Made by a program: the position numbers and the translations under genes. Shown in pieces: positions 5,384 through 63,948 of a stretch of DNA of 64,000 nt. The notes beneath the pieces were generated by a model. It worked only from the letters and a program-made list of their open reading frames with translations. It made no database searches and had not been told where the DNA came from. This stretch comes from a virus, in the IMG/VR virus record IMGVR_UViG_3300045988_153285, positions 1 through 64,000 of that record. One strand, given 5' to 3'. Each line of letters begins with the position of its first letter. Position 1 is the stretch's first letter.

Positions 5384-5384
5384 A

Positions 5385-14117: not shown

Positions 14118-14582
14118 TTATTTTGTAACAACGAAACCAAACATAGCGTGTCCTGCTACATTCATTTTTCCTAATGATTTAAGCCCAGTATCAGTCTCTT
14201 GAGTTGCTGTTCCTTTTAACTTACCGTTTTCGACAATTACATATTCACCTGCAGCTCCTTTGTTAGCTTCACCATCTATATCTGCAGATGCTAAACAATC
14301 AGTTGCAAATCTTTCTCCCTTATGTAAAACTCTTAATCCACAATATTCATCTTTTAATATTGTATCTTGTTCAGCATCCCAGTCTGATACAGGATATCCC
14401 ATTGCTACATCTTTAGTAACTTTTACGTCCCTAACAACTACCCCTACCATTTCATCTACAGAAGCAGCTTTCATTAATTTTCCTCCAGCAACTTTAACAA
14501 AATCTCCTCTCTTTAACTCTTCACCAGCTTGATATTGTGCGTCTACATTAACGCCTAAAATAGTTTGTAAATTTTTAATCAT
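14118..14582 (-). CDS. small head protein (decoration/DUF2190-like candidate)
   Basis: 154-aa beta-rich ORF between the scaffold and capsid genes. Confidence 0.35.
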   Translation of the reverse strand: MIKNLQTILGVNVDAQYQAGEELKRGDFVKVAGGKLMKAASVDEMVGVVVRDVKVTKDVAMGYPVSDWDAEQDTILKDEYCGLRVLHKGERFATDCLASADIDGEANKGAAGEYVIVENGKLKGTATQETDTGLKSLGKMNVAGHAMFGFVVTK

Positions 14583-14633
14583 ACTTATTTCCTCCTAAAT
14601 TATATTAATTTTTATTTTGGGTTCTTATCCCAA

Positions 14634-16103: not shown

Positions 16104-16118
16104 TTAATTTCACCTCCT

Positions 16119-17795
16119 TTAAACTTTAACATCATTATTAGACTTGTCTTCTAAAGACTTGTCTTGGTTTTCTGATTTCTTTGAACCATTAGAGTTTTTA
16201 TCTGGATCAGTATTATCTATTAGCTGATTACTATTTGATGTATAACTATTACCATGAGGTATAAATATTTCTTCATCAAATTTATTATCATTCTCAGCCT
16301 TCCTTCTAGATACTTCTTCGTCATAATCTAAACCTAATGCTTCTATTGCAGTTTTGTAACTTAAACCTATCTTAGAATAAACAAGATCAACAAGTTTGCT
16401 GCAGCTATCCAAATCAAGTAATAATGTATTTTGAATATTTATAGTAGGTGCATATTCTGCTGGAAAACCATTTTCATCTAATATAACTTTGTATAACTTA
16501 TTTAATATTCTTTCAAGACCACGATTTATTTTATTGATCGTCTTTAATAAATCTTCATAGTTAATCTTAACTACATTAGCCCCATTTTTACTTTCATTAC
16601 TAGAGAATGTAATTCCACAAGCTCCTAAAACTCTATTACGGTTAGATGAAACTATATCATTATCTGTAGGATCAGCTTTAGGTTCTAGTATTTCTAAACT
16701 TTCAACCAATCCAGTAGAAGTATAAATAACCACATCAGAATCCATAGCTTGAAGTAATGATGCTTGTGCATAACCAACAGCGTTTATGTCTATTTGCCCA
16801 TTATCATCTATACATTCTTTTCTCATCTTTTGATAGAATACCTTCTTAGCCTTTGCTTGTAAATTCTTTCTATCTACATTATCAATAGTTTCCAATGTAA
16901 GAAGTGGTGTAAGTGCTTTAAATAATGGTGTAACTCCATATTTCTTCCCCATGTTATTGATTCTATTTACACCTATTCTTTCAGGATTCAAATATACATA
17001 ATTATCGTTATTTTTATATGCTTCATATACTTCCTCTGGATAATCTCTTTTTACTTCTTCCTGGATAATAGTTTTTATATCCACCTTTTGCTTTGTTTTC
17101 ATTTTTCCGTATTTATTGATACTTCCTTGTAATCTAGATTTTAATTCATTTACATTGAATACGACTAAAGGTTCACCATCTATAGTTCTATCTGTGATTT
17201 CAATTATATCTAAAGGATATTTTACTACCCCATAACCATTATCACTATCACCTTTTAAATACATTATAAAGTTTCCTTCAGTATATACAGACATTACATT
17301 ATCAACTATAAGTTTTTTTATATCTATATTTGAATTAAACTTATTAATGAGCGATCTTATCTCATCTTTCATTTTTGATTCTTTTTTCTTAGCTGACTTG
17401 TTGATTCCTCCCACTAAAGGATAATTAATTGTGAAATTTGTATTAATATTATTTTCTAATATTTCATATGTTTTTCCAATTAAATCAGATTTGTTTAAAT
17501 AATATTGAATTATTCCATTAATTTTTATAATCTTTTCTAAGTTTGTTTGAGTATTTTTAGCCAGGCTAGATATTTGCTCAGGAGTAGTAACGTACTCATT
17601 ATTGTCTTTTATAAGTAATCTATCGTATAAATGACTTAACTTTTCAACATCATATTCAGCTAATTGTAAATAATCATCAAACTGTCCCTGATGCACTTCA
17701 AATTCAGATGCAATGTAATTTCCATCAATATTACTTATAACTATTTTTTGACCTGATTCTAAAACTGGAATATTTGCTTCAATTGTTTTCGACAA
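16119..17795 (-). CDS. portal protein (positional)
   Basis: 558-aa ORF immediately downstream of the large terminase, with an acidic C-tail. Confidence 0.6.
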   Translation of the reverse strand: MSKTIEANIPVLESGQKIVISNIDGNYIASEFEVHQGQFDDYLQLAEYDVEKLSHLYDRLLIKDNNEYVTTPEQISSLAKNTQTNLEKIIKINGIIQYYLNKSDLIGKTYEILENNINTNFTINYPLVGGINKSAKKKESKMKDEIRSLINKFNSNIDIKKLIVDNVMSVYTEGNFIMYLKGDSDNGYGVVKYPLDIIEITDRTIDGEPLVVFNVNELKSRLQGSINKYGKMKTKQKVDIKTIIQEEVKRDYPEEVYEAYKNNDNYVYLNPERIGVNRINNMGKKYGVTPLFKALTPLLTLETIDNVDRKNLQAKAKKVFYQKMRKECIDDNGQIDINAVGYAQASLLQAMDSDVVIYTSTGLVESLEILEPKADPTDNDIVSSNRNRVLGACGITFSSNESKNGANVVKINYEDLLKTINKINRGLERILNKLYKVILDENGFPAEYAPTINIQNTLLLDLDSCSKLVDLVYSKIGLSYKTAIEALGLDYDEEVSRRKAENDNKFDEEIFIPHGNSYTSNSNQLIDNTDPDKNSNGSKKSENQDKSLEDKSNNDVKV

Positions 17796-17808
17796 AATTT
17801 CACCTCCT

Positions 17809-19614
17809 TTATAAATTTATTGAATTTACAAATATTGGTATTGAAGACCAATCATTTGTTCTACTCTTTGGTTTCAAATTCGCTTCTAATAATTTTGCTA
17901 CATAAATACCATATCCCAAACTAGAATATCTATCTTTACGTTTAGTAGATGGTTCTTTCAATTTTATTAAATTATTATCCGTATCTACTCTTTCTAAATT
18001 AACCATTTCATTTATTAGTAATGTTGTTTGCATATAAGGTATTTTGAATTGCAACTGTTCTTCTAATGACAAATCGTTGTAGCCTTTTATTTTGCTCAAG
18101 TATTCACTACACTCGTTCTCATTTATAAGCATCCTTAGTTTTCCTCTTTTTAAATCATCCCTTACATAAACGTGCATATCATTATTAAGTTGTGCATTTG
18201 CTTTTATACTGTAAATAACTTTTGGAGCATTATCCACCATACATCTTTTTGCCATGATTTCATCATTAATACAATTTAATGCTTCATAATTTCTATCTAA
18301 GTCCTTGTCATATAAATTAGTAGCCAAATTGTCAAATATAGATAGACCAAAAGATTGAGTATCTATAACAATATAGTCACAATCAAATTCCTCATATAAC
18401 CTTCTAATTTTTAAAGCTTGAATTTGTGAATGTCCACCTTCATAACTTTCCATATAACATACTTGTTTATCGTAACTTAATCCATTCCTACTAGGTATTA
18501 ACCTTATTACTGTGAATACAGATGCATCATTGTTATTTTTTGCTGAGCTCATACCTGATATATCACATGATACAAGTCTTATTTCCCCTATTTCTTTTTC
18601 TGGATATTTAAAATCTTTTGACTTTATATTAGCATAGAAAGATTTAGGATATATTGCTTTGGGTAAAACCCTATTCTTTTCTAACTCTGCAAATTTAAAG
18701 AATGCCTTCTCAGACTCTCCAAAGAACAAAGATTCCATTTCCATCATCCAGGATATTTCATTGAAATCACTTTCTGACATTTCATCTTCTACTTGTTTTC
18801 TCATCAGAAGTCCTTCTTTAATGGCTAATTGATAAGGTAGAGAACATAAAAAATAAGATTTGCCTTCCATCATTGAATCGAAATAAGCATTAACCTTATC
18901 CCATGACCAATGGTGCTTGTACCAGCAAGAACTTAAATATAACTCTTTATTTCTTTCTTGCAGATGCTTATATTCTGGTTTCTCAAGATATTTAGGTTGT
19001 CTTGGTGCTGTCATAAATTTTCTAAGTACACTATCTATGATATCTTTATCAACCATTCTAAATTCATCTACTACAATTATATTCGCTCTTTTAGATCTTG
19101 CTCCCTGATTTGCAGCTACACACCTAATCCAACTACCATTTCTGAAAGTAACTCTCGCATCATTACTACCTGTTTTAATTTCATCTATTTCTCTTGCTAA
19201 ATTAGGTGAACTATTTTTTAAATCCAAAATCTTCTCTATTATTTCAATACTTTGAGATTTATTACCTGCCGCAAGAATTATCTTACTTTGTGGGAATAAT
19301 ATTGCTCTGGTACAACAAAATATTGACGTTAAGAACGATTTCCCCTGACCTCTCGAAGCAAGATACATAAAATAGTTATAATGCATCATAAAGTATATTA
19401 ATATCTTTTGAAATGTTTTTAAATTAACTCCGAAATAATCACGCACAAATAAATGTGGAAACAATCTATACCATGAAGCCCATAATCCTATTCCATTCAT
19501 CAGCTTCTCTGATTTTGTCATGTTGTCCATGTTTTTATTAAGAACACGTCTTTGTTTGAATATATCTGTTTTGCTTTGTTGTTTATCTTTATTAAAATAA
19601 GTTTGACCAGCCAT
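17809..19614 (-). CDS. terL: terminase large subunit
   Basis: Walker A reads ASRGQGKSF and Walker B reads IIVVDEF. The C-terminal nuclease-like half contains acidic residues. 601 aa. Confidence 0.85.
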
Positions 19615-31032: not shown

Positions 31033-32094
31033 ATGAAAAAATCAAGCGTACTAGCTATAGGTTGTGGAGGAGCAGGTAATAGACTTCTTAATGAATTTTT
31101 AGAGTTAGATAGAAGATATACGGGTATTTTTATGAATACTAATATGGCGGAAATGGAAGATTTGAAACATTTTGATAGAGAAAGAAGATGTTTTTATATA
31201 CCAAATGCAGATGGTACAGGTAAGGATAGAAAATTAGCAGAACAATATATAAAAGATGAAGCTGCTAAGTTTGTTGAGATGATTAAAAAATTTACTAATC
31301 AAAATCATATAATATTCTTAACAAGTGCAAATGGGGGTACTGGATCAAAAGCTTCTGTTATGCTTCCAAGATTGATAAAAGCAGCTTGTCCTGATAAAAC
31401 AATATCTTTAATAGCAACTTATCCAAATATAGATGAATCTGATATAGATTTTGAAAATAGTTTAGATTTCTGGGAAGAAGTTAAAACTTGTAGAAAAAGA
31501 AAATTCATAGACAACGTTAGATTTATAGATAATAATAAACCATATAGTGAAGATGAAATAAATAAGCTTGCTATGAAAGAGTTAGATGATAGTTTTAACA
31601 TAATGGAAGGAAAATTAGATAGTTCTGATGTTACTAGATATCATGTAAGCAATGGTTATAATGTAGTTCTTAGATTAGATTCTGATGTATCTTCAATTAA
31701 AAGAGTTATTGATATGGCATTATCTAAAAGTGTGTACTATATTCCTGAAAATTTAGAATGTGATGTTTTAATAGGGAATATAAATAGTAAATCACATTCT
31801 TTGGCTGACATTAGAGAGAAAATTGAATGCTATGACTTCTCTAAATTCAACACAAAAACAGAAGGAGATTCTTTATTACTTATAGGTGGATGTATAATGC
31901 CTACTGAAGCAATAGAGTTAGTTCAAGAGAGCTTAGAAGATTTAAAAAATAGAAGAAATAGAAGACAACGTGAAGAAGACATTGTAATCAAAAGAAATAA
32001 AAAGGAAACTGTGAAAAAAGAGAAAGAAACTTCATCAAGAGTAACTTCTGAAGACCTAGATGCTATGTACGAAGATGATTCTTTCTGGGATTAA
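31033..32094 (+). CDS. tubZ: TubZ tubulin/FtsZ-like GTPase (plasmid/phage partition motor)
   Basis: T1 loop reads AIGCGGAGNR and the tubulin signature reads SANGGTGSKAS. The C-terminal tail is charged. Confidence 0.8.
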   Translation: MKKSSVLAIGCGGAGNRLLNEFLELDRRYTGIFMNTNMAEMEDLKHFDRERRCFYIPNADGTGKDRKLAEQYIKDEAAKFVEMIKKFTNQNHIIFLTSANGGTGSKASVMLPRLIKAACPDKTISLIATYPNIDESDIDFENSLDFWEEVKTCRKRKFIDNVRFIDNNKPYSEDEINKLAMKELDDSFNIMEGKLDSSDVTRYHVSNGYNVVLRLDSDVSSIKRVIDMALSKSVYYIPENLECDVLIGNINSKSHSLADIREKIECYDFSKFNTKTEGDSLLLIGGCIMPTEAIELVQESLEDLKNRRNRRQREEDIVIKRNKKETVKKEKETSSRVTSEDLDAMYEDDSFWD

Positions 32095-43476: not shown

Positions 43477-43515
43477 ATAATTAAAGATTGAAATTGATTT
43501 AAGGAGTTGTTGAGA

Positions 43516-45339
43516 ATGTGTAAAATATTATTAAATGAAAAATTAAATGGTGTAGAATTATATTTTGAGGAGAAACCAGCAGGAACAGTATTAACAGATT
43601 TAAAAGCTAATGGTTTTAGATGGAATGGTAAAAAGGTTTGTTGGTATGCTAAACAATCAGAAGAAACTTTAAAGGTTGCTAATACATACAGTGAAGGATC
43701 AAAAGAAGTTGCAACAGCTTCATTAAAGAAAATTAACAAAATAGATTTATTTGAATTAACTACTTATACAGAAGTAGAAAGAGAAAAGAATTATAATACA
43801 AAGGAAATAGCAAAGAAAATAAGAACACACTTAAAAGCTAGATTTAAATTTGTTAAATTTTCAGTTACTTCTAAAGATAGAATAAGAGTAGAAATAAAAT
43901 CAGCACCATTTGAAAAAGATACTATTTATTTAAAGGCTATTCAAGAATACGTTGATAAATTAGTAGAATCATACAATTTTTGTACTTGTTATGATCCATA
44001 TGGTGACTATGGTTCAAGTTATAATTTTTATTTCTTTGGTTGTAGAGTTGATTATGATTATATTCAAGTTGAAGCAACACAAGAAATAATTGAAGCTATG
44101 AAACAGTTTGATATTAAAGTAGCCGAAGCCGAAGAATTAAAAAGAGTTGAAGAAGAAAGACAATATCAAGAATATTTAAAAGAACAAGAACAAGCGAATA
44201 AAGAAGCAGAAAAAAGACAAAAACAAATAAAAGCCGATAAAGAATATATTAATAATAATATTGAAGTTGTTGATCTAGAAGAAGGAAATCAATATTTTGT
44301 TAAAAATGCTTATTTTGCAAATTTAAATAAAAATAACACATTAGAAAGATATCAAGAAGAAGTTTCTAAAGGTGACTACTATTTAAATACTTTAAAAGTA
44401 ACTAGAGAAGTTCACTTCAAAGATTTAAAATCATATAATCTATACATAAATATGTTATTACATGATTTTGATTTTATTGACGGTACTGGTGGAAGTTATA
44501 CAGATGATTTAAGAATTAATTCAATGACAGACTATTATAATATGACTAGCGAAGAACAAAAAACTATTGAATGGCTTTTAAAGGGCGTAGCAGTATATAT
44601 TGATAATGAGTTAATGTTTGTTATAGATGCTCAGGGTTATTGTTATGCTAGATATGTTGGATTAATTGGAGAAAATACAGTTACTACAAAGGAATATACT
44701 TGTAAACAAGTTGTAGCAGTTGAAGAGGTAGAAGAAAGAAAAATTGAAGCTGAAGAAATTCAAGAGGTTTATAATAATGTAATTAATAATACTTTTGATA
44801 ATTGGTATGATACTAGAAAAGCAATAGCAGCAGCTATAAGAAAAAATCCGTTATTGACTTTTGATAATACAGTGGTACAACAAATCAAAGATGAAAAAAT
44901 TAAAATTGATTTATATAAAGTGCTAAAGGAAGTCGATACGATTCAAGATCAGTTTAATGAATCAGGATTAAGCAAGGGCGATAAATTAACCATTGTAAGG
45001 GGTTCAATGATTGGCGGGGCTTCTATATCACATATTATATTAGAAGGTTTTACAATGGAAGAATATGCACAATATAAAGACAATGTAAAAATAACTATGA
45101 ATGTTAAGGGTAAAAAAGGTTTATATTTAACTAATGTGCATGATAAAGATATTGTAATATATAAAGGTTGGATTGATATACCTACTAGCGTATTATATGA
45201 AGATACAAGCAATGGAAACTTTAACGGAATGGCTACAAAATACGGAAGTTATGACGAAAGAGCAATAAGTGATATTATGAGTTATTTACAAGAAAAAAAT
45301 ATATTGCCAATAATAAATACATTCAAGCCAATATTTTAA
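43516..45339 (+). CDS. large hypothetical protein (polyvalent-protein-like N-terminal modules)
   Basis: 607 aa from the ATG at 43516. The N-terminus NGVELYFEEKP...GFRWNGKKVCWYAK and a KFSV...-type module recall plasmid/phage polyvalent proteins. This rests on weak recollection only. Confidence 0.5.
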   Translation: MCKILLNEKLNGVELYFEEKPAGTVLTDLKANGFRWNGKKVCWYAKQSEETLKVANTYSEGSKEVATASLKKINKIDLFELTTYTEVEREKNYNTKEIAKKIRTHLKARFKFVKFSVTSKDRIRVEIKSAPFEKDTIYLKAIQEYVDKLVESYNFCTCYDPYGDYGSSYNFYFFGCRVDYDYIQVEATQEIIEAMKQFDIKVAEAEELKRVEEERQYQEYLKEQEQANKEAEKRQKQIKADKEYINNNIEVVDLEEGNQYFVKNAYFANLNKNNTLERYQEEVSKGDYYLNTLKVTREVHFKDLKSYNLYINMLLHDFDFIDGTGGSYTDDLRINSMTDYYNMTSEEQKTIEWLLKGVAVYIDNELMFVIDAQGYCYARYVGLIGENTVTTKEYTCKQVVAVEEVEERKIEAEEIQEVYNNVINNTFDNWYDTRKAIAAAIRKNPLLTFDNTVVQQIKDEKIKIDLYKVLKEVDTIQDQFNESGLSKGDKLTIVRGSMIGGASISHIILEGFTMEEYAQYKDNVKITMNVKGKKGLYLTNVHDKDIVIYKGWIDIPTSVLYEDTSNGNFNGMATKYGSYDERAISDIMSYLQEKNILPIINTFKPIF

Positions 45340-47075: not shown

Positions 47076-47312
47076 ATGAAACGAATAGGTAAATTAACAA
47101 AATATAGAGTAATATGCAATACGCTTGATGTATTAGTTAGAAATAATATAGATAATAGATTTAATATTATACAAGAAAAATTCAATAGGAGAGAATCTGA
47201 AACTATTCAGGAGCTTTTGAGTGTTATAGATGAGTTGTTATGTTCTACAGAAGATTATGATGTTAAACAGTGTTTAATAGCATATAGAGACAGATTGAAG
47301 GTAATAATATAA
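47076..47312 (+). CDS. hypothetical protein
   Basis: 78-aa ORF with an RBS. Confidence 0.45.
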   Translation: MKRIGKLTKYRVICNTLDVLVRNNIDNRFNIIQEKFNRRESETIQELLSVIDELLCSTEDYDVKQCLIAYRDRLKVII

Positions 47313-47328: not shown

Positions 47329-47574
47329 ATGAAAAGATATATAGTAAATAACACAAAAGTATATGAAGCAGATCCAGCAAAAGAAATGAGATTTATAAAA
47401 AGATTGGCTAAACTCGACTATATAATTGTATACGATAAACAAATAATAGAGCAAGAGAATAAAATATTGCTTATACCTAACCGATTAACATTGTTAGAAA
47501 CTTATGATATTATTAAGAGAGTGTATCCTATTAGTTATGTTGTAAAAAATTTCAAAGAAATAGGTTTAATATAA
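47329..47574 (+). CDS. hypothetical protein
   Basis: 81-aa ORF. Confidence 0.45.
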   Translation: MKRYIVNNTKVYEADPAKEMRFIKRLAKLDYIIVYDKQIIEQENKILLIPNRLTLLETYDIIKRVYPISYVVKNFKEIGLI

Positions 47575-47605: not shown

Positions 47606-47635
47606 TTGACAACGATAAGAAGAATATGGTAATAT
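47606..47635 (+). promoter_or_regulatory. promoter TTGACA-18-TAATAT (TGG-extended)
   Basis: Junction-motif variant at 47590-47601. Confidence 0.55.
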
Positions 47636-47677
47636 ATAGGTATAGTAAGTAATAAAAAATTTAAGGAGATTTGAGAA

Positions 47678-48268
47678 ATGAATAATGAATTTATTATAAA
47701 AAGAGGAATGATATTTTATGCAGATCTAGGAATTAGCGAAGATAGTGTTCAAGCTGGGCTTAGGCCGGTAATTATCGTGGGAAATGGCTTACAATGCAAA
47801 TTCGGGCCGATTATAACAGTAATTCCAATAACTTCAAAGATAGCGAAGAAACGTTTAATGACACAAACATTATTAATTAATGAAATTGGTTTAAATAGAG
47901 AAAGTATGCCAATGGCAGAACAAATTACAACAATATCAAAGGACAAATTAGTTAGTTACATAGGTAGATTAAGAAAAAGTACAATGGAGGAAATTGATAA
48001 AACAATAGATGCAGCGTTAGCATTAACAGATATAAGAGAAAAAGAAATAGAAAAACAAGTTGAAGAAGTTAAGAGATGGGAAAACAATATAAATGATCTA
48101 AAAGATATAGTTCCAAAGACTGCTTTAGAACAAATAAAACTAAGATATAAAATAGAGTTAAATAAATTAGATAATATATGTAATTCAAATAGGAAGAGTA
48201 TAAATAATTATTATATAGCAAATATAAATACATTTTCAAATGAGATGAGTATGGTAGCAACAAGATAA
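47678..48268 (+). CDS. MazF/PemK-family toxin domain with ~80-aa coiled-coil C-terminal extension
   Basis: IKRGMIFYADLG...GLRPVIIVGN...VIPITSK...AEQITTISKDKL matches the PemK pattern. 196 aa, against the usual ~115. Confidence 0.7.
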   Translation: MNNEFIIKRGMIFYADLGISEDSVQAGLRPVIIVGNGLQCKFGPIITVIPITSKIAKKRLMTQTLLINEIGLNRESMPMAEQITTISKDKLVSYIGRLRKSTMEEIDKTIDAALALTDIREKEIEKQVEEVKRWENNINDLKDIVPKTALEQIKLRYKIELNKLDNICNSNRKSINNYYIANINTFSNEMSMVATR

Positions 48269-48294
48269 AAAGAATTTATGGGGGCGGATGTAAA

Positions 48295-48903
48295 ATGGAT
48301 ATACAAAAAATTGTAAAAGAAGAAATATTCCCTATGTTAGGCGAAGGGAAAATAGATGAAGCAGAAAAGAAACTAAGAAGATTAATGTTAACTTTGACGG
48401 ATAAGAATTGCACAGAAGACCATAGAATAGTTTTATGTTCTCTTAGCAGAATAAAGTATATTACTGGTGATATTGATAATGCAAAATATTATATAAATAG
48501 ATTCATAGATATTCTGCAGCATGATAATGAATATGCAGAAACATATAAGGATGGTTATTGTAATTATATAAATTTATATGCTGAGATATTTAAAGATAGT
48601 ATTGATATAGATGAAAAAAATAAGATAAACAATATAAATTTAGATAATGCTATAAATAATAACGATACAGCAAGGATATATACAGCTAAAGCAAATATAG
48701 CATTTCTAAGAGATGATATAGAAGAAATAGAAAATGTCCTTATGGACATACATAATTATGAAAAATCTAAACTAATAGATGAAAATAAGCTAATTAGCGC
48801 AGAGGTTTTAAATGATCTTTGCAATTTAAAAATAGAAATATACAAAGAGTTAAAGGAAAAATATCCTAATTATGTACAAGAAGATTATAACTATGCTTAC
48901 TAG
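48295..48903 (+). CDS. TPR-like helical repeat protein
   Basis: 202 aa with TPR-like units (LSRIKYITGDIDNAKYYINRFIDIL, ARIYTAKANIAFLRDDIEE). No HTH seen. Confidence 0.45.
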   Translation: MDIQKIVKEEIFPMLGEGKIDEAEKKLRRLMLTLTDKNCTEDHRIVLCSLSRIKYITGDIDNAKYYINRFIDILQHDNEYAETYKDGYCNYINLYAEIFKDSIDIDEKNKINNINLDNAINNNDTARIYTAKANIAFLRDDIEEIENVLMDIHNYEKSKLIDENKLISAEVLNDLCNLKIEIYKELKEKYPNYVQEDYNYAY

Positions 48904-48959
48904 ACAATTTCCTCTTTAGAGGGGTTGAATATATATATATAATTTTTGGAGGTACATTT

Positions 48960-49124
48960 ATGAAAAAAACAATTGGAAAAGGAATTATTCTAGGAGCAGC
49001 TATAACAATAGCAATAGGTGTAATAGGAGGTGCAACAATGATGAAACCTAGAATATTAAATCCATGGGGAGGTACAAATGATAAAGACGGGATTGAATTA
49101 GCAATATTGAATCCTTGGGGATAA
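48960..49124 (+). CDS. secreted pro-peptide candidate with duplicated ILNPWG, the second copy at the extreme C-terminus
   Basis: 54 aa by hand translation: MKKTIGKGIILGAATITIAIGVIGGATMMKPRILNPWGGTNDKDGIELAILNPWG. RBS GGAGG sits 7 nt upstream. Confidence 0.5.
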   Translation: MKKTIGKGIILGAAITIAIGVIGGATMMKPRILNPWGGTNDKDGIELAILNPWG

Positions 49125-49199
49125 TTGGAAGAGTGGGCATCTTAATTGGTGTCCACTTAAAATTGTATAGATTAATATAATAAAGGAGAATGAGAAAAT

Positions 49200-51978: not shown

Positions 51979-53319
51979 ATGGAAAGTTTAGAAAAATTAA
52001 AAGAGAGAATATTAGAATCTGTAGAAGATAATATTAACAATAAAAAATTATTAAAAGAGTTGAGAGAGGAATTTATAAAGAAAAAATTACCTTCAGCCAT
52101 ACCAAACCAATTGTTTAGTGAGTCTATAGATGAAGATCACTTAGATAAAAATGTATTGATTGCTATAACAAAAGTATTTAAGAATGAATTAGACTCTGAA
52201 AAATTTAAACTATCTAATTACTTTAGTGAAGGTGAAATATTTAGCTACAACAATGAGATAGAAGTTAAAGAAAAAATAGATTATGTATTGTTTAAAGGAA
52301 TCAGACAGATAGATGGCAAGAACTTTTTAGGTGTTATTGATGGTAAGCAAGCAGTTGAAATGAGAAAAAATTCACTATATTCCTATAATAAGTTATTTCA
52401 ACGTGCGCCTAAGGTGGTCAGAACATCTTCTGGAAGAACTATAAAGAAAATTGATGCGAATAAAGAAAATATATTAGATATGGAAAAAGAGTTTTCAGAA
52501 GAAAAAATGACACCAACATCTATTCATTTTGCTATATTAGTTAATAATACGGCAGGAATAAGCGAAAACTTTAAATTTAAAAAAATGTATGAAAATATAG
52601 GTGATATGTGGATTAAGCCGAACTTTGATTTTGAATCTGAAACTTATTTACCATTAATGTGTGTTGATGGGTGGCATAGATTAACAGCTATGTGCAATGC
52701 AGTTGAAAAAGCTGAAGCAGAAGGAAAAACAATAAAGGCTGAATTAGGATGTTTTGTTCATATTTTTGATAATGAAGCAGCTATTAGACACTTTATAGTT
52801 AGTACATTTAAACGCTGTACGACTAATCTAGATTATTTAAATGCAATTACTCCTAATGATGACAATATATTTATAGATGAATTTATAAAAGAATGCAAAT
52901 GGTTAAATGGACATACAGCATTAACTAAGCAAGAAATGAAATTAGAAAATAATTATACTGAAAAAAGAATATTAATAGATTCATTTAAGAAAACTAATAT
53001 AGAGATGAATGATGATCTAAAGAACACAATAAGTCGAGAAAAAGTGGCAAAAGTAATCGATGAAACATTAGATTATGTATTAAAAGAATTATATGATAAC
53101 AATTTAGAAAAAATGATTAATACTATTTATTTGAATAGAAATATATTTAAAATGTATATAAAGTTTGCAGCAGAAGTTAGAGATAAAAAATATGGAATGG
53201 ATATTTATAACCTGATTCAGTATATAGAAAATAATTGCGAAAAAATTACAAACACATTTAATGAAAAGTATATAGCAGATAGTAGTATAGATTTAATTCT
53301 GAGCGAGGTGATTAAATAA
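51979..53319 (+). CDS. DGQHR/DndB-like (ParB/Srx-fold) domain protein
   Basis: CVDGWHRLTAM with upstream FQRAPKV resembles the DndB-type QR...DGQHR arrangement. Confidence 0.45.
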   Translation: MESLEKLKERILESVEDNINNKKLLKELREEFIKKKLPSAIPNQLFSESIDEDHLDKNVLIAITKVFKNELDSEKFKLSNYFSEGEIFSYNNEIEVKEKIDYVLFKGIRQIDGKNFLGVIDGKQAVEMRKNSLYSYNKLFQRAPKVVRTSSGRTIKKIDANKENILDMEKEFSEEKMTPTSIHFAILVNNTAGISENFKFKKMYENIGDMWIKPNFDFESETYLPLMCVDGWHRLTAMCNAVEKAEAEGKTIKAELGCFVHIFDNEAAIRHFIVSTFKRCTTNLDYLNAITPNDDNIFIDEFIKECKWLNGHTALTKQEMKLENNYTEKRILIDSFKKTNIEMNDDLKNTISREKVAKVIDETLDYVLKELYDNNLEKMINTIYLNRNIFKMYIKFAAEVRDKKYGMDIYNLIQYIENNCEKITNTFNEKYIADSSIDLILSEVIK

Positions 53320-54461
53320 TGAAGACTTTTGAGGAATTAATAAAGAGCGAAAGAAATAAATTGGAAAATAAAAATTTAAAATTTGATGAGTACGAGAACA
53401 ATAAGATAAACTGGTTAAACGATGATGAGAATAACGGATATATAGCAGAAAAAACAAAGATAACTTATTATAGATTGTTAGATGTGCATGTGCATAGTTC
53501 GGAAATAGCTAATAACAAAGATTTAAGAAAATTTACAAGTGTAGAAATAGAAAACCTAGTTAAAGGAGCAATAACTAATAGTAGTACAACTAAACGTGCT
53601 ATATTTGCAGCTATAAATAATTATATGATATATAACGTTGAAAGAGGATTTATAAGCTACAATCCATGTGACTCAATACCAACAACTGATTTATTTGAAG
53701 TAAATAATAAAGCATTAAAAGAACAATACATGCCGTTAGATGAGTTCTATGCATATGTAGATGAATTATCTGCTGATAATGTTGAAAAAATGGTATATGT
53801 ACTAATTAGATACGGTGTACCAGTAAGTGATGTACCTAATGTCAAATGGGAAGATTTGAATGAAGAAGAAATGGTATTAACAACTATTGTTAAGAAAAAA
53901 GCAGTGTCATTACCTATAGATGAAGATTTTATAAGAAAAGCAAGGTTGTGTAGGGCATGTTCAGAGTATGAAGATGGTGGCTATATGATAAAAACAGTAG
54001 ATGGAAGACTTTCTTCTGTAAGTAGAATATATGGAATAATTGATAGGGTTAGTAAAGCTAGCGAAGTTGCAAGACCAGATATGGGAATGTTATTTAAAAA
54101 TAGAAGATATGATCTCGCATTAGAAATTTATGAAGATGAAGGACAAATAGAATCAAACGATCTAAAAGAAATATTAGATATATTAGGTTTATCAAGTGGA
54201 AATTCTAGTTTAACTACATTTAGAAAAGAATTAGAAAATATCTTTGGTTTAGAAGTTAAAACAAAAAACAAAAGAGCTATTGATGTTATAGATATTAATA
54301 CAGGTGAAATAATAAAGACTTATGAATCTATTAGAAATGTGGTAAAAGATAGCAAAGAAACTTTCGGATTCTATATAGATAAGAGTGTTGTTGGGAAAAC
54401 ATGCAAAGGTGAAAGAGAAGGCATGAGAGGATTAACATTTAGATATTCAGAGCAGGGGTAA
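53319..54461 (+). CDS. catalytically degenerate tyrosine-recombinase-like protein with NUMOD-like C-terminal DNA-binding tail
   Basis: SAM-like core-binding region (TKRAIFAAINNYMIYNVERGFISYNPC). The box I Arg is replaced (IRYGVPVSDV). I could not recognise HxxR or the Tyr. The tail reads GLTFRY. The start overlaps the upstream stop (TAATG). Confidence 0.4.
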   Translation: MKTFEELIKSERNKLENKNLKFDEYENNKINWLNDDENNGYIAEKTKITYYRLLDVHVHSSEIANNKDLRKFTSVEIENLVKGAITNSSTTKRAIFAAINNYMIYNVERGFISYNPCDSIPTTDLFEVNNKALKEQYMPLDEFYAYVDELSADNVEKMVYVLIRYGVPVSDVPNVKWEDLNEEEMVLTTIVKKKAVSLPIDEDFIRKARLCRACSEYEDGGYMIKTVDGRLSSVSRIYGIIDRVSKASEVARPDMGMLFKNRRYDLALEIYEDEGQIESNDLKEILDILGLSSGNSSLTTFRKELENIFGLEVKTKNKRAIDVIDINTGEIIKTYESIRNVVKDSKETFGFYIDKSVVGKTCKGEREGMRGLTFRYSEQG

Positions 54462-59220: not shown

Positions 59221-60165
59221 ATGAAATATTTTGAATTATTTGCAGGGACAGGTATAGGAGGACTAGCATTAGATAGAAATGGATTTAAAAATGTAGGATA
59301 TTCCGAATATGATACGTATGCCATTAAGAATTATGAAGCTAATTTTCCAGGAAGAGTTAACTATGGAGATATAACAAAAATTAATGAAAAAGAATTACCT
59401 AATTTTGATCTATTAATAGGTGGCTCACCATGTCAAGATATAAGTATAATGCGAAAAACTTGGACGGAAGGTAATACAGAAGGGTTGCAGGGGAATGAAA
59501 GTAAATTATTCTTTGATTATGCGAGAATATTAAACTATAAATTACCAAAATGGTTTATATTTGAGAATGTTCAGAATTTAACTACATGTAATAACGGGGA
59601 AGACTGGGATATAGTCAAAACCGCTTTAGAGAGAAATTATTTTATAAAGTATAAAATATTAGATACTAAAAATTATAATATACCTCAAACTAGAAGAAGA
59701 ATATACATACTTGGACAAAGAAAAGATTTGGGAGAATTTAATTATGAATTTCCTAAACCATTGAAATTAAACAAAACAGTATTTGATCTATTAGAAAGAA
59801 ATGTTGATGATAAATATTATTTAAGTGATAAAATGTATGACTATGTTATGAAAGAAGGTACTGGGAACTTTAAGCAAAAGCCTGAGACTGATCTTGAAAT
59901 TGCTAGACCTCTTACAGCTACTATGCATAAAATGCACAGAGCTGGAACGGATAATTATTATCATACTAACTATAAGCCAAATAATAAAACAAATTTAAGA
60001 AAATTAACACCTAGGGAATGTGCTAGACTACAAGGTTTGGATGATACATATAAAATAGTAGTTAGTGACACAAGGGCTTATAAATTAATGGGAAATGCTA
60101 TGAGTCTAAATGTTATTGAAGCAATAGTTAAAGAATTATTGGAATACATAAATAAATTAAAATAA
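59221..60165 (+). CDS. DNA cytosine-5 methyltransferase
   Basis: Motifs FAGTGIGG, SPCQDIS, ENV, QTRRR and GNAM. Confidence 0.9.
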   Translation: MKYFELFAGTGIGGLALDRNGFKNVGYSEYDTYAIKNYEANFPGRVNYGDITKINEKELPNFDLLIGGSPCQDISIMRKTWTEGNTEGLQGNESKLFFDYARILNYKLPKWFIFENVQNLTTCNNGEDWDIVKTALERNYFIKYKILDTKNYNIPQTRRRIYILGQRKDLGEFNYEFPKPLKLNKTVFDLLERNVDDKYYLSDKMYDYVMKEGTGNFKQKPETDLEIARPLTATMHKMHRAGTDNYYHTNYKPNNKTNLRKLTPRECARLQGLDDTYKIVVSDTRAYKLMGNAMSLNVIEAIVKELLEYINKLK

Positions 60166-60247
60166 AAAATATTAGAGAGAGCTAACAAAATAAATTGATA
60201 AAATTAATCTTTTATAGAAAATAATAAACTAAAAGGAGGAAATAAGA

Positions 60248-60970
60248 ATGGTTTATATGGGAAGTAAGAATAGATTAGCAAAATGTTTAGTGCCAATAAT
60301 ACAAAATTATATAACAGAAGATACAAGAGGATATTTAGAACCATTTGTAGGTGGTGCAAATATGATTGATAAGATACAATGCAACAATAAAATAGGTTGC
60401 GATATACATAAACCATTAATAGCATTATTGAACAAAGCAAAAGATGATAGTGAATCTTTGCCAACGAATATAACAAAAGAAGAATATGAGGACGTTAAAA
60501 ATAATAAGGAGAGTTACGAAGATTGGTATGTAGGATTAGTCGGTTTCTGTTCTAGTTTTGGCGCTAAGTATTTTGGTGGATATGCAAAAGCTAATGATAA
60601 GAGAAACAGACAATTAGAGATGATAAATAATTTAAAGAAACAATCACCTAATTTAAAAAATATAGAGTTTAAATGTTGTGATTTTCTTGATTTGCCAAAA
60701 GAAGATATAAAAGGATATGTTATTTATTGCGATCCACCATATAAAGGGACAACCAAGTATAAGACAGAAGAATTTCCATATGAAGAATTTTATGAATGGT
60801 GCAAAGAAATGTCAATACATAATACAGTTTTAATTAGTGAATATAATATGCCCGATGATTTTGAATGCATATGGGAGAAAGATCTTAAAACTTCTTTGGG
60901 TAGTGGTGTTAATAAAGAGAGTGATAGAAATAGAACTGAAAGATTATATACATATAAAATAACTAAATAA
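60248..60970 (+). CDS. Dam-family (alpha-class) N6-adenine DNA methyltransferase
   Basis: GSKNRL, EPFVGGANM and CDPPY. Confidence 0.8.
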   Translation: MVYMGSKNRLAKCLVPIIQNYITEDTRGYLEPFVGGANMIDKIQCNNKIGCDIHKPLIALLNKAKDDSESLPTNITKEEYEDVKNNKESYEDWYVGLVGFCSSFGAKYFGGYAKANDKRNRQLEMINNLKKQSPNLKNIEFKCCDFLDLPKEDIKGYVIYCDPPYKGTTKYKTEEFPYEEFYEWCKEMSIHNTVLISEYNMPDDFECIWEKDLKTSLGSGVNKESDRNRTERLYTYKITK

Positions 60971-61015
60971 AATCAACCTTTTATAAAAAATAAATTAAAA
61001 ATGGAGGAATTATAA

Positions 61016-61588
61016 TGAGTGCAACTAACCGAGGAGCAGAAAGAAAGGCGTATGATTTTTATGCTACACCAATAGATGTTGTTTTAAACTTTTTGGAAAA
61101 ACAAAATATATCAAAATTAAATCAAGGTGGGGGGGGTAATTCTTGAACCATCTGCAGGGAATGGAAATATAATAAAAGCATTGAATACATATTATAAAGA
61201 TAGAAAAATAGAGGCTTGCGAAATTAGGCAGGAAGAAGAATTGGGATTAAAAGAGATTTCAGATGAAGTAATTATAGGGAATTTCTTAGAATTAGACATT
61301 GATAAGAAATATGATGTTATAATAGGTAATCCACCTTATAGTTTGGCAAGGGAGTTTGTAGAAAAATCTTTAAACAGCTTAAAAGATGATGGCGTATTGA
61401 TATTTCTTTTAAGAACAGCTTTCTTGGAAAGTAAATCTAGGTATGAATTTTGGCAAAAGAATCCTTTGAGTGGATTGTATACATTAAGTAAGAGACCAAG
61501 TTTCACAGGGAAAGGTACTGATGCAACATCTTATAGTTGGTTTGTTTGGGATAAAGGTTCAGATAAACAAACAATTAAAGTTATATAA
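61016..61588 (+). pseudogene. gamma-class N6-adenine DNA methyltransferase interrupted at a G8 tract (out of frame as sequenced)
   Basis: The ATG at 61016 gives MSATNRGAERKAYDFYATPIDVV...NQGGGGNS-stop. The frame with LEPSAGNGN and GNPPYS resumes at the G-run 61128-61135. G7 would give one ORF. Confidence 0.65.
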
Positions 61589-61600
61589 GGAGAATTTTAA

Positions 61601-61774
61601 ATGTATAAATGTAATAATTGTGGAAATGAGAAATATTTCGAAGAAACTAATATTATTAAAATTTTTGTATTACAAGATGAAGATGGTAATATAAACACTT
61701 CAAGTGATAAATTTTTATATAACCAAAATGTGATTTGTTCAAAATGTAAAAGAGTAATAGAGAATAAATCTTAA
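61601..61774 (+). CDS. small zinc-ribbon protein (57 aa)
   Basis: Contains CNNC...CSKC. RBS AAGGAG. Confidence 0.45.
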   Translation: MYKCNNCGNEKYFEETNIIKIFVLQDEDGNINTSSDKFLYNQNVICSKCKRVIENKS

Positions 61775-61803
61775 AATAATTATATATAAATTAATAAAAT
61801 AAA

Positions 61804-61832
61804 TTGACAACTCATTTCCGAAATGTTATCAT
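61804..61832 (+). promoter_or_regulatory. promoter TTGACA-17-TATCAT (TG-extended)
   Basis: Junction motif at 61788-61799. Confidence 0.55.
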
Positions 61833-61893
61833 GAATAGTAGTAATTAACAGATAAGGAGTGAGTTGTAAAAAAAATTAAAGAGGTAGAACAGT

Positions 61894-62535
61894 ATGGAAT
61901 TAGGGAGATATAAACATAAAATAACTGAGAAAGAATTTAAAAGTGCAACTAATGTGTGCAAAAGGTTGGCTAGAGAATATTATGAAAAGAATGATAGATA
62001 TACATACGAAGAATATTTAAGTACGGCATATTATGGGTTATCAAGGGCTATTAAATATTATGATAGCAGGAAAGCATCGTTTATTAGATTAATTTATATA
62101 TGCTGTGAACAAGATTTAGCAATGATGATTAATACAATAGATAAAAAATATAATCAAAATAAAAGAGAATTTGAACCTAAAATAGTTGCAGATTATAGTT
62201 TGAATGAGGTTATTAAAACAGAAAAGAGCTTAAACAACACCGACAATACATTAGAAGATCTCATTGGAGATAAAAGAGTAGATTATACATATATAGAGGT
62301 AAAAGATTATATACATACAATATTCAATAGTTTTTATGAAAATATAAATCCTAAAATGAAAAGATTTAAAGTTAATAAAGATAGAGATATAAGATTAATA
62401 GAGTTGATTGTAAAAGGCTACACAGTAATGGAGGCTAGTAATATTATAGGTATTTCTAATCAGTTGGCAAATAGTATAATAAAGAAATTTAGAAATTATG
62501 CCATAGAAAATAACTTGAAATATAATATAAATTAA
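61894..62535 (+). CDS. sigma-70-family (ECF/phage-type) sigma factor
   Basis: Region 2-like segment reads YLSTAYYGLSRAIKYYDSRKASFIRLIYICCEQDL. Region 4 HTH reads GYTVMEASNIIGISNQLANSIIKKF. Confidence 0.6.
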   Translation: MELGRYKHKITEKEFKSATNVCKRLAREYYEKNDRYTYEEYLSTAYYGLSRAIKYYDSRKASFIRLIYICCEQDLAMMINTIDKKYNQNKREFEPKIVADYSLNEVIKTEKSLNNTDNTLEDLIGDKRVDYTYIEVKDYIHTIFNSFYENINPKMKRFKVNKDRDIRLIELIVKGYTVMEASNIIGISNQLANSIIKKFRNYAIENNLKYNIN

Positions 62536-62577
62536 CAAAATAAAAGATAGGTTTTATTGAAAGCAAGGAGGTATAAA

Positions 62578-62793
62578 ATGAAGCAGCAGGAATATTATGT
62601 GACGTTAAAGTTAAAAATTGAATCTGATCCAATCCAGGAAGAAGACTTATTAACTAAAGAAATAATCGATGATAGATTTAAACAAAGAATGAGTTGTATA
62701 TTTGATGAGGAGACTATTGAAGTTAAGGAATTTAAAAGCAAGTTAAAAGTTAAGGAGGTGGAAAATAAAAATGAGCGAGAAACAGATTTATAG
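62578..62793 (+). CDS. hypothetical protein
   Basis: RBS AAGGAGG followed by the ATG at 62578. Confidence 0.45.
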   Translation: MKQQEYYVTLKLKIESDPIQEEDLLTKEIIDDRFKQRMSCIFDEETIEVKEFKSKLKVKEVENKNERETDL

Positions 62794-62860
62794 ACATTAC
62801 CAACAAGGGTTTATTTCAAATGAAGAATTAAAGAGTTGGATTAAAAAAATAAATACATAA
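62771..62860 (+). CDS. possible 29-aa overlapping mini-ORF
   Basis: RBS GGAGGTGG sits 9 nt before the ATG. Very short. Confidence 0.25.
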   Translation: MSEKQIYRHYQQGFISNEELKSWIKKINT

Positions 62861-62901
62861 TAGTTGAATTATAAAAATTAACAAAATAAAGGAGAAGGTA
62901 A

Positions 62902-63057
62902 ATGACAAAATGTTATTTTTGCGGAGAAGAAATGATGTGGAATATTGATTACACAAAAGAAGATTATGGCATGGAAGGAACAGGGCTTATTGTTAGTTTA
63001 AGTTGTTCGAATTGCGGTGCTAGTTGTGATTTTTATGAAGGGGAGGAAGAAGAATAA
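62902..63057 (+). CDS. small zinc-ribbon protein (51 aa)
   Basis: Contains CYFC...CSNC. The stop abuts the next ATG. Confidence 0.45.
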   Translation: MTKCYFCGEEMMWNIDYTKEDYGMEGTGLIVSLSCSNCGASCDFYEGEEEE

Positions 63058-63948
63058 ATGAGAGTTTTAAGTTTATGTGATGGAGTTTCGGGAGGACAAC
63101 AAGCATTTGATATGCTTGGAATAAAATTTAATGGAGTAGAAAATACGTACTATGCGAGTGAAATAGCCGAATATAGTATAAAAGTTACACAGAAAAATTA
63201 TCCTACAACCATACAACTTGGAGATATGACAGCATTGACAAATGATTTTTTTGACAGTTTGGGTGAAATTGATATTTTACTTTCAGGCACACCATGTAAA
63301 TCGTTAAGCCGTACTCACATAGGTAATTATAATGAAGGCTTAGATGGATCTTCTAAATTATTTTGGGATTTTGTAAGAATAAAAGATTATATAAAACCTA
63401 AATATTTCTTATTTGAAAATGTAGAAAGTATGAAAGACAGTGATAGAGATATAATTACAGAGGCACTAGGTGTTGAACCAATTATGATTAATAGCAGTTT
63501 ATTTACTGCGCAGGATAGAAAAAGATATTATTGGACTAATATACCTATATTACCATTACCAGAAGAAAGCTCATCGGTATTAAAAGATATAATGATACAT
63601 AATCCAGAAGAGAAATTGTTTTATAAGCAAGATTTTGAATTTCATGGCTGGGATAAAAAACAGATAGCAACTTTAAATTTAAAATGCCATGACATAGGTA
63701 AAAGAGTTTATAATCCAAATATGAAATGTGCTACTTTAACTGCTGTAACAGGTGGATATCAAGAAAAGAAGGTTTATGATAATGGAAGGTGTAGAAAATT
63801 AACTCCATTAGAATATGAAAGGTTGCAGGGTATGAAAGATAATTATACTGAGGGTATAGCTAATTCAAAAAGATATTGTGCTTGTGGTGATGGATGGACT
63901 ATACCTGTAATAGCACATATATTAAAGGGTTTAAAAGAATACATATAA
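63058..63948 (+). CDS. DNA cytosine-5 methyltransferase (second, divergent)
   Basis: Motifs LCDGVSGG, GTPCKSLS, ENV, QDRKR, TPLEYERLQG and GDGW. Confidence 0.8.
   Translation: MRVLSLCDGVSGGQQAFDMLGIKFNGVENTYYASEIAEYSIKVTQKNYPTTIQLGDMTALTNDFFDSLGEIDILLSGTPCKSLSRTHIGNYNEGLDGSSKLFWDFVRIKDYIKPKYFLFENVESMKDSDRDIITEALGVEPIMINSSLFTAQDRKRYYWTNIPILPLPEESSSVLKDIMIHNPEEKLFYKQDFEFHGWDKKQIATLNLKCHDIGKRVYNPNMKCATLTAVTGGYQEKKVYDNGRCRKLTPLEYERLQGMKDNYTEGIANSKRYCACGDGWTIPVIAHILKGLKEYI

Follow-up and report, generated by a model that had tools for sequence, protein, structure and literature searches.

This report concerns a three-gene module found in a viral genome, IMG/VR virus record IMGVR_UViG_3300045988_153285, of which positions 1 to 64,000 were analyzed; this whole 64,000-nt stretch is termed the window, and coordinates refer to it unless a related locus, designated by an L number, is named. 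Within this DNA, which has a G+C content of 27%, positions 47606-49158 contain, in order, a promoter, a gene for a MazF toxin, a gene for a tetratricopeptide repeat (TPR)-like protein, a propeptide gene, and a hairpin. The three open reading frames (ORFs) all lie on the plus strand, are separated by gaps of 26 and 56 nt, exactly as an earlier note made from the sequence had described them, and are each preceded by a GGAGG-type ribosome-binding site. The first (47678-48268) encodes a 196-aa toxin composed of a MazF/PemK endoribonuclease core (residues 1-118; 47678-48031) and a C-terminal tail (residues 119-196 plus the stop codon; 48032-48268). The second (48295-48903) encodes a 202-aa, all-helical, TPR-like protein with no DNA-binding domain, and the third (48960-49124) encodes a 54-aa putative propeptide with a signal-like N-terminus and a duplicated motif, ILNPWG. 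Comparison of this locus with its relatives argues robustly for a minimal family of peptide-receptor-like proteins that is locked to an extended MazF and that, within the searches made, appears to be undescribed.

Several lines of evidence identify the toxin. The 196-aa protein matches Pfam PF02452 (PemK_toxin; E 1.5e-17, residues 8-112) and PHROG 1936, "MazF-like growth inhibitor" (E 1.2e-23), and the MazF/EndoA structure of Bacillus subtilis, 4mdx, aligns end to end with residues 5-118 (E 8e-17). Likewise, Foldseek matched the predicted structure to MazF of Staphylococcus aureus, B. subtilis, and Bacillus cereus, with template-modeling (TM) scores, normalized to the targets, of 0.75-0.79. 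Ten of 11 lineages retain the catalytic Arg (R25 of B. subtilis), every lineage compared has T or S at the position of the catalytic Thr48, and the tailed MazF is, on sequence grounds, apparently active. The ~78 extra C-terminal residues (119-196) had been described earlier as a coiled-coil tail of ~80 aa; the domain and the extension both held up, with the tail predicted by AlphaFold2 (AF2) as a helical hairpin with a disordered end. Specifically, helices span residues 100-141 and 147-170 (predicted local distance difference test, pLDDT, 82-86), residues 180-196 score below 50, and the model of the whole protein is only moderate (pLDDT 67). Motifs in the tail (EVKxW..., ..ELNKLxxIC.., and ..YY) are conserved in very diverged lineages, with one Cys invariant. 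No counterpart of residues 119-196 was found in the PDB among solved MazF structures, and a tail-only profile search, aimed at standalone tails or tails on other toxins, returned the same family only. There is also no MazE-type gene upstream, in agreement with the earlier note: the ORFs at 47329-47574 and 47076-47312 belong to no Pfam or PHROG family. The former, of 81 aa, was considered as a hidden MazE and rejected, as it has no family match, is separated from the MazF gene by the promoter, and is absent upstream of MazF in L011, L016, L021, and L024. An apparently split MazF in L002 was also set aside, being merely a run of Ns in the scaffold.

The middle protein owes its classification to structure. 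In Pfam, its best TPR match is TPR_6, which is not significant (E 0.08), NCBIfam and PADLOC assign it to no family, two of 23 diverse family members touch TPR_P4H (best E 5.2e-5), and profile searches against the PDB with two family profiles gave faint TPR matches only (E at least 0.0085). The AF2 model, by comparison, is confident (pLDDT 90.4; predicted TM-score 0.81), with 9-10 helices arranged in 4-5 antiparallel pairs, and the top 50 Foldseek matches in the PDB are all TPR or TPR-like (probability 0.87-1.0, TM ~0.3-0.56, best E 5.6e-3). These include designed CTPRs, LapB, kinesin light chain, LGN, RapI, and pLS20 Rap-Phr*, although the matches to RapI (4i1a) and pLS20 Rap (6t46) are generic structural ones only (E 0.018-0.05, TMq 0.44-0.51). 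No helix-turn-helix (HTH) was found with Pfam, NCBIfam, or PHROGs, nor was a signal peptide found. The earlier description of a TPR-like protein without an HTH is thus upheld by the predicted structure and by the missing HTH, and it fails where TPR sequence models are concerned. Family members are few, with only 28 recovered in a hidden Markov model (HMM) search of 1.84 billion representative proteins, and nearly all of the full-length ones measure ~180-220 aa; a pattern scan with the diverse family alignment A5 yielded no stretch that was conserved enough. Searches of PDB sequences with the two family profiles detected no homology to validated receptors (Rap, Rgg, NprR, PlcR, PrgX, and AimR), and AimR was absent from both the structural and the sequence matches of the 202-aa protein. 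Since no TPR or RRNPP sequence match is significant, membership of Rap, AimR, or any other RRNPP subfamily does not stand. What does stand, from the model, is a predicted TPR-like, HTH-less, cytoplasmic protein belonging to a rare, stand-alone family, with a fold that would be able to hold a short peptide.

The third ORF is a real gene with the hallmarks of a signaling propeptide. Its product reads MKKTIGK, 21 uncharged residues, and then KPR-ILNPWG-GTNDKDGIELA-ILNPWG-stop. Residues 1-28 (48960-49043) form a putative Sec-type signal or anchor, the first ILNPWG copy lies at 49053-49070, and the second, at 49104-49121, constitutes the extreme C-terminus, all on the plus strand. The N-region carries a net charge of +3 ahead of the 21 uncharged hydrophobic residues, and most lineages show the same organization, with 18-27 uncharged hydrophobic residues after an N-region of net charge +3 to +5. 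In other lineages too, a peptide ORF lies directly downstream of the TPR-like gene, at a distance of 34-56 nt, and it carries a motif of its own. For example, the L005-7 precursor is a 37-aa allele with a single ILNPWG that stops right after copy 1; L001, L008, and L012 carry ILNPWS ... ILNPWN; L013 has ILNTWS as copy 1; and L002, L003, L010, and L014 carry VLNPWS ... VLNPWN. L011, whose receptor is 44% identical, encodes ILDRWG ... ILDRWG-TI, L015 encodes GVQAWG twice, and L019 and L020 encode RIDNPLG four times in tandem. Finally, the L016 and L022 precursors read ...AKDAWVTY and ...HSPWGIVIPK, and that of L027 reads ...VAWA-GPSDRG-stop, the terminal hexapeptide coming right after an AxA signal-peptidase motif. 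Precursors therefore hold one, two, or four copies, located at or near the C-terminus, and from one lineage to the next the whole motif is replaced but the hydrophobic part retained. In most of the motifs (ILNPW, ILDRW, GVQAW, KDAW, and HSPW), a Trp next to N, P, or G stands at the center or the end; RIDNPLG and GPSDRG lack Trp.

Within a precursor, all copies take on the same substitution (I to V in both, or NP to DR in both), and they differ almost exclusively at silent sites. The two ILNPWG copies of the window show two synonymous and no non-synonymous codon differences, four of five core codons are silently different between the copies of L010, and none of the 23 pairwise codon differences among the four copies of L019 is non-synonymous. 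This pattern indicates that each copy is under selection for its amino-acid sequence, and it follows that the ORF is translated, with the repeated 5-7-mer as its functional part. Some alleles have S in one copy and N in the other at position 6, leaving [IV]LNPW as the conserved core of this clade. An Ala always precedes the second copies (ELA/I, NVA/I, and NIA/G, with the slash marking the start of the copy), an arrangement that resembles Phr processing sites. The earlier note had reported the 54-aa ORF, its signal-like N-terminus, and the twofold ILNPWG, with one copy at the very C-terminus, and had proposed a signaling propeptide; the description was borne out, and the proposal gains from a Sec-type N-terminus combined with a C-terminal motif that is lineage-specific and under purifying selection.

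The three genes travel together, as the earlier note's proposal implied that they should. Wherever enough sequence precedes a TPR-family gene, a long MazF (188-223 aa) is encoded there at a distance of 3-33 nt, and the trio is present in ~12 lineages, among which receptor identity is ~23-44%. The loci behind this count are the window group, L011, L015, L016, L017 (a tail fragment), L018, L019, L021, L022, L023, L024, and L027. An independent scan of 44 viral MazF loci gave the same picture from the side of the toxin: all four tailed MazF genes are followed by a TPR-family gene, and the 40 tail-less ones never are. The tailed MazF gene and the TPR-like gene are strictly linked, and across the ~12 lineages the tailed MazF is the only invariant neighbor of the receptor gene.

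Close relatives with different peptides reveal which parts of the module diverge together. L001 and L010 differ by the I to V change in both motif copies; their MazF proteins are 97% identical in core and tail alike, and their TPR-like proteins are 100% identical in the N-terminal half and 52% in the C-terminal half. Against a background of 97-100% DNA identity, the divergence falls into three stretches, namely the C-terminal half of the TPR-like gene (63-73% nt identity), the mature-peptide codons (85-87%), and the promoter with the start of the MazF gene (77-85%); the last of these is untied to peptide type, as two N-terminal variants of MazF, ISED and VGEG, are found with one and the same peptide type. 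Between the window and L001, where position 6 and the linker differ, the MazF core and tail are 95% and 96% identical, and the two halves of the TPR-like protein are 69% (N-terminal) and 83% (C-terminal) identical, with divergence at receptor residues ~48-107 (62-77% nt) and again at the mature-peptide codons. Where the peptide is the same ILNPWG, as in the window and L005, the receptor is no more diverged than MazF (core 89%, tail 73%; TPR-like N-half 82%, C-half 87%). Receptor and peptide thus seem to diverge together and the toxin does not, a pattern of receptor-ligand specificity diversification for which the evidence is strong but not conclusive, because few genomes were compared and these are recombinant mosaics. 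The positions of the changes also hint at an orientation in which the N-terminal end of the peptide lies toward the C-terminal repeats and its C-terminal end toward the N-terminal repeats.

The module is delimited by a promoter and a stem-loop. At 47606-47635 (plus strand), ~40 nt from the MazF ATG, lies a sigma-A-type promoter with an extended -10 (TTGACA, 18 nt, TGgTAATAT; 10 of 12 consensus matches, TG present). A generic promoter scan of the window found 33 sites versus 35 expected in shuffled sequence, so that this site is not significant alone; it is accepted on the single ground that its position is conserved in diverged loci. Specifically, TTGACA and TGnTAnnAT occur ~40-60 nt upstream of the MazF ATG in L001, L005, L010, L011, L015, and L021, and in a weaker version in L016, across loci whose MazF identity is ~35-50%. 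The single upstream promoter of the earlier note is therefore retained for its conserved position, its scan score being no better than chance. At the other end, an 11-bp stem-loop without a clear U-tract occupies 49131-49158 (plus strand; RNAfold, -19.6 kcal/mol for the 70 nt that hold it). A counterpart is found downstream of the peptide gene in L001, L005, L010, L011, L015, L016, L019, and L024, that of L016 being a canonical terminator, and window and L005 differ by compensatory changes (GGTGAACA/TGTTCACC). The stem-loop closes the three-gene unit, probably as a weak terminator or 3'-end stabilizer.

Two further elements precede the propeptide gene. Directly 5' of its ribosome-binding site is an AT-alternating element, TTGAATATATATATATAAT (48925-48943, plus strand), and an alternating element of this kind (TTGAATATATAT(T)AT) recurs at the same position in L001, L005, L010, L011, L016, L019, and L021-L024. 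In 11 of 14 modules, ATATATA lies at most 44 nt ahead of the start codon of the peptide gene; the comparison set is 150 sites in the window with a Shine-Dalgarno sequence and an ATG, six of which have ATATATA at most 30 nt upstream. The element may be the -10 of an internal promoter, for which the scan offers a promoter-like match on the plus strand (TTTAGA at 48915-48920, 17 nt, and TATAAT at 48938-48943), or it may be an operator. Between the ribosome-binding site and the ATG, at 48953-48957, stands UACAU, as it does in L001, L010, and L015. UACAU is the cleavage motif of MazF enzymes in Firmicutes such as B. subtilis, S. aureus, and Clostridioides difficile, and its placement could provide feedback from toxin to signal; it is treated as a possible coincidence, since window-wide counts on the sense strands show no significant enrichment or depletion (z 1.5-1.7).

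In the model favored here, to which we assign a probability of roughly 0.55 as a whole, the locus is a peptide-gated, tailed-MazF module. The propeptide would be exported by way of its Sec-type N-terminus and trimmed outside the cell to a 5-7-residue peptide, whose core in this case would be ILNPW(G), present in two copies per precursor. This peptide would build up with the density of carrier or infected cells, be re-imported, and bind in the groove of the cytoplasmic 202-aa protein. The most probable target of the latter would be the co-encoded MazF, gripped via its helical tail and neutralized or otherwise controlled by the TPR-like protein, which would serve as antitoxin or regulator in place of MazE and, because it has no DNA-binding domain, would act by protein-protein contact. 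Peptide occupancy would then switch the complex and render the RNase activity of MazF density-dependent. The favored direction, admittedly a guess, is that high peptide releases MazF, because Phr peptides make Rap proteins release their targets and because MazF in the phage phi3T pathway is active at high peptide. The output may be a lysis-lysogeny or dormancy decision, or alternatively plasmid-type maintenance. Among the parts of the model, the pairing of peptide and receptor is very likely, and a physical coupling of the TPR-like protein to MazF is probable at a lower level. The most specific version, in which a minimal, ~200-aa TPR-like receptor is itself the antitoxin of the tailed MazF and a secreted, lineage-specific 5-7-mer gates the endoribonuclease post-translationally without a transcription factor, is tentative, its chances being a little under even.

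A number of observations weigh against this model. To begin with, the TPR likeness of the 202-aa protein is generic, with weak E-values and no significant sequence model, and signal-peptide cleavage was judged by eye and with simple statistics. The peptide gene also varies: L024 (3153-3197) has a very short hydrophobic ORF with a strong ribosome-binding site (MLALALAVAITLWI*) and no Sec-type propeptide, L017 (961-1041) has a comparable ORF, again with a strong ribosome-binding site (MLDFLVSLVSDDPGAGSRWGMFFLWF*; ...SRWGMFFLWF), and L018 contains no convincing peptide ORF and may be an "eavesdropper" or a peptide-independent variant. The co-divergence comes from a handful of recombinant genomes. 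Moreover, the TPR-like protein diverges to 69% and 52% where MazF stays 95-98% identical, so any interface between the two would lie in residues 1-47 or ~108-150, or there is none. In L016 (2347-2979), the long MazF contains an insertion and has GTHANGSNITA instead of the catalytic Arg-Pro motif (GxRP), yet the tail, the TPR-like gene, and a single-copy propeptide are all kept; this MazF may have lost its activity or changed its chemistry. An interaction between the TPR-like protein and MazF is suggested by the strict co-occurrence of tail and TPR gene, and by that only. Finally, a DNA-binding domain, usual in type II antitoxins as the means of autoregulation, is missing from the TPR-like protein.

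Some of these points would be explained if signal and receptor were a genuine pair with a target elsewhere, such as a host response regulator, a sporulation factor, a phage repressor, the antirepressor Ant, or the replication and partition machinery. The tailed MazF would then be a co-transcribed addiction or host-takeover toxin, checked by its own tail or by an unrecognized antitoxin. A receptor that diverges strongly with no compensating change in MazF is in keeping with this explanation, as is the retention of receptor and peptide beside the L016 MazF, and the module does sit among regulatory and maintenance genes (Ant, XRE, recombinases, and TubZ). HTH-less Rap proteins, too, act on diverse, non-adjacent targets (PMC9765709). 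Nevertheless, a distant target is unlikely, for it is the tailed MazF that accompanies the receptor gene in all ~12 lineages while Ant and others come and go, the tail exists solely beside a TPR-family gene, and a spacing of 3-33 nt between a shared promoter and hairpin is typical of genes whose products interact.

A second explanation dispenses with a diffusible signal. The small ORF would encode a single-pass membrane protein (an anchor, immunity, or holin-like protein), the TPR-like protein would be a peptide-independent antitoxin or chaperone, and the whole would be a plain, though unusual, type II or tripartite toxin-antitoxin (TA) addiction module of a phage-plasmid. The hydrophobic stretch is indeed long for a signal peptide (18-27 residues), with copy 1 starting ~3 residues later, the 54-aa protein weakly matches the small membrane family DUF3042 (E 0.0056), L018 seems to manage without the ORF, and TubZ and the MrpR-like and Xer-like recombinases suit an addiction role. 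Against this, selection is concentrated on a short C-terminal motif whose two to four copies differ only silently, the motif is replaced wholesale while the hydrophobic part stays, one allele ends right after a single copy, and in L027 the AxA motif abuts the terminal hexapeptide. Furthermore, the K/R-rich N-terminus predicts a C-terminus outside the cell, away from the cytoplasmic TPR-like protein, and the islands of receptor divergence coincide with motif changes, all of which makes a membrane protein improbable. Equally improbable is direct action of the peptide on MazF or its tail, enhancing activity or displacing a TPR-like protein that is a plain antitoxin. Such action might be supposed from the Trp beside N, P, or G in most motifs and from reports that extracellular death factor (EDF) peptides, NNWNN among them, attach to MazF and stimulate its RNase activity (PMC3668371, PMC5930309), but peptide changes track the TPR-like protein and leave MazF 95-98% identical across peptide types, TPR grooves are classic binders of short peptides, and RIDNPLG and GPSDRG have no Trp.

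Among known systems, Rap-Phr offers the closest set of parallels to the peptide-gated module proposed here. Shared traits would include a cytoplasmic, HTH-less, TPR-type receptor that works by protein-protein contact; a Sec-type propeptide gene immediately downstream, with the C-terminal 5-6 residues as the signal; multi-copy precursors, which are known for Phr, and rapid co-diversification of receptor and peptide into specificity types (PMC9765709; PMC10075063); and frequent carriage on phages, plasmids, and phage-plasmids (PMC9765709; PMC10075063). In contrast, Rap proteins are ~375 aa long, with an N-terminal three-helix bundle and 7-9 TPRs, as opposed to ~200 aa and 4-5 helix pairs, there is no detectable sequence homology and no significant TPR HMM match here, Rap targets are encoded elsewhere and not by a tailed MazF gene upstream in the same operon, and the hosts here are Clostridia, not Bacilli. 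The RRNPP_detector signature comprises an adjacent propeptide gene of 10-100 aa, exported by Sec (SignalP) or of the short hydrophobic peptide (SHP) type, and a receptor of 250-500 aa with a TPR HMM match at E < 1e-5 (PMC10075063); the module has the adjacent small propeptide gene, and its receptor-like protein falls short in length (202 aa) and in TPR HMM score (best Pfam E 0.08).

Arbitrium is likewise phage-borne, with a propeptide whose C-terminal hexapeptide differs in type between phages, a likeness of architecture only. In phage phi3T, AimX is the antitoxin of the host MazF, MazF activity at high peptide is needed for lysogeny, and the pathway thus also ends at a MazF toxin (10.1101/2023.04.27.537455). 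Differences are nonetheless considerable: AimR (~380 aa, N-terminal HTH plus TPR) controls aimX, whereas the module has no AimR homologue, HTH, or evident transcriptional step; its MazF is phage-encoded and structurally extended; its control is proposed to be post-translational, with the receptor acting on the toxin and not via a promoter and an antitoxin; and its gene order is toxin, receptor, peptide, with no match to deposited phages. EDF-mazEF similarly involves linear peptides of 5-6 residues, with a central Trp in the E. coli peptide NNWNN, as a density signal that is reported to modulate MazF (PMC3668371, PMC5930309), and apart from arbitrium no further link between a peptide and MazF has been claimed. 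EDF is cut from the housekeeping protein Zwf and said to bind MazF, with no dedicated propeptide gene or receptor, in contrast to the dedicated, apparently co-evolving propeptide gene and the TPR-like protein encoded here in a toxin operon without MazE. The short hydrophobic ORFs of L024 and L017 recall the SHP-type pheromones of Rgg/ComR-SHP/XIP systems, which are exported without a Sec signal, although this is a resemblance only, and the receptors here have no HTH and are much shorter. As in type II and tripartite TA systems (toxin-first higBA; toxin-antitoxin-chaperone), a small cytoplasmic partner is encoded just downstream of a MazF/PemK toxin and in the same transcript, on a plasmid-like replicon and near multimer-resolution and partition genes. 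The partner here is TPR-like, without a DNA-binding domain, and not of the AbrB, ribbon-helix-helix, or PHD type, the toxin has a dedicated tail, and the third gene encodes a secreted-type peptide instead of a chaperone. No MazF- or antitoxin-linked receptor is described in the RRNPP(A) surveys and other literature searched, and the trio is absent from curated libraries, from deposited phages and plasmids, and from that literature, in line with the earlier note, which knew of no description of the arrangement.

The element that carries the module is read as a large temperate phage of Clostridia, ~120-140 kb long, and is probably a phage-plasmid. Genes for tape-measure, tail-fiber, portal, and large-terminase proteins (172-19614, minus strand) mark the window as a tailed phage. 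Relatives occur as separate contigs of ~118-140 kb, two of them from draft genomes of Paraclostridium bifermentans and Clostridium cuniculi, and public copies are annotated as "hypothetical protein". The TPR-like protein has the accession WP_195515397.1 in P. bifermentans (GCA_015557425.1, contig JADNOG010000009) and WP_133014953.1 in C. cuniculi, whose MazF is WP_133014952.1. The earlier association with SPbeta-like phages did not hold, the element being a phage-plasmid-like phage of Clostridia that is not demonstrably SPbeta-like. Neither megablast of the 4.2-kb region nor tblastn of the TPR-like protein against deposited phages and plasmids produced a match, so the module is known only from metagenomes and the two draft genomes. 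The window also encodes a 353-aa tubulin/FtsZ-family GTPase (31033-32094, plus strand; PF00091, E 1.4e-10), and the Clostridium botulinum phage c-st uses a TubZ partition system; this GTPase, together with the separate ~118-140 kb contigs, suggests maintenance as a phage-plasmid. MrpR-like and Xer-like tyrosine recombinases are encoded as well.

Immediately downstream of the module in the window are Ant (Bro-N plus KilAC), a tyrosine recombinase, and an XRE HTH gene. The earlier note had listed an antirepressor, a recombinase, and an XRE regulator here, and a domain search found them, but its term "lysis-lysogeny territory" is weakly supported, since Ant, which follows the module in the window, L002/3, and L016, is missing at this position in L005, L011, and L019 and is thus not a conserved neighbor. 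For the same reason, Ant was rejected as an aimX-like output gene. A 446-aa protein (PHROG 5732) and the MrpR-like recombinase accompany the module in the window (51979-54461, plus strand), L016 (1-2095), L024 (1-1718), and L021 (1-807). The pair lies downstream of the module in the window and L011; in L016, L021, and L024, the recombinase gene is directly upstream of MazF, with the 446-aa gene beside it in L016 and L024. This neighborhood points to maintenance or multimer resolution and not to a classic lysogeny switch. In relatives of 84% identity, an IS200/IS605-type pair (Y1 transposase plus TnpB/Cas12f-like OrfB) has inserted just downstream of the 446-aa gene (L005, 10740-12292; L007, 6042-7594).

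Elsewhere in the window, three DNA methyltransferase genes (59221-63948, plus strand), two C-5 cytosine (PF00145; E 8e-76 and 1.2e-31) and one N6-adenine D12 (PF02086; E 5.4e-22), presumably serve in phage anti-restriction self-methylation. A 610-aa protein (43507-45339, plus strand) contains the LPD29 "large polyvalent protein-associated" domain (PF18847, E 3.5e-10) and occupies the same position in L001. A separate set of IMG/VR contigs, L029-L058 (~900-5350 of each locus), places a tail-less MazF of ~160-205 aa (longest ORF) in a different recurrent phage context that is unrelated to the TPR module, with a ~455-aa protein encoded upstream and a ~810-825-aa protein encoded downstream, the latter overlapping the MazF stop codon.

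Peptide communication by phages is known almost exclusively from arbitrium and Rap-Phr of the Bacilli, and the module would extend phage-borne peptide signaling to gut Clostridia. Control of MazF by peptides has been debated since EDF, and the recent discovery that arbitrium operates via the host MazF gave substance to the idea. With its toxin, receptor-like partner, and signal inherited and evolving together, the cassette would offer a compact system in which to test for a direct connection from peptide to toxin, and its natural specificity variants (ILNPWG, VLNPWN, ILDRWG, GVQAWG, RIDNPLG, and GPSDRG), along with receptor chimeras, are suited to the mapping of specificity. The TPR-like family fails the length and TPR HMM filters, and current genome screens can therefore miss systems of this kind. 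Possible uses include orthogonal, peptide-gated growth switches and a better understanding of what keeps large phage-plasmids in gut communities and what settles their fate there. If the receptor is indeed the antitoxin, the module would be an encoded "quorum-sensing toxin-antitoxin" in which the arbitrium-AimX-MazF axis is collapsed into one operon, and it would represent a previously unrecognized class of communication system in phages and phage-plasmids.

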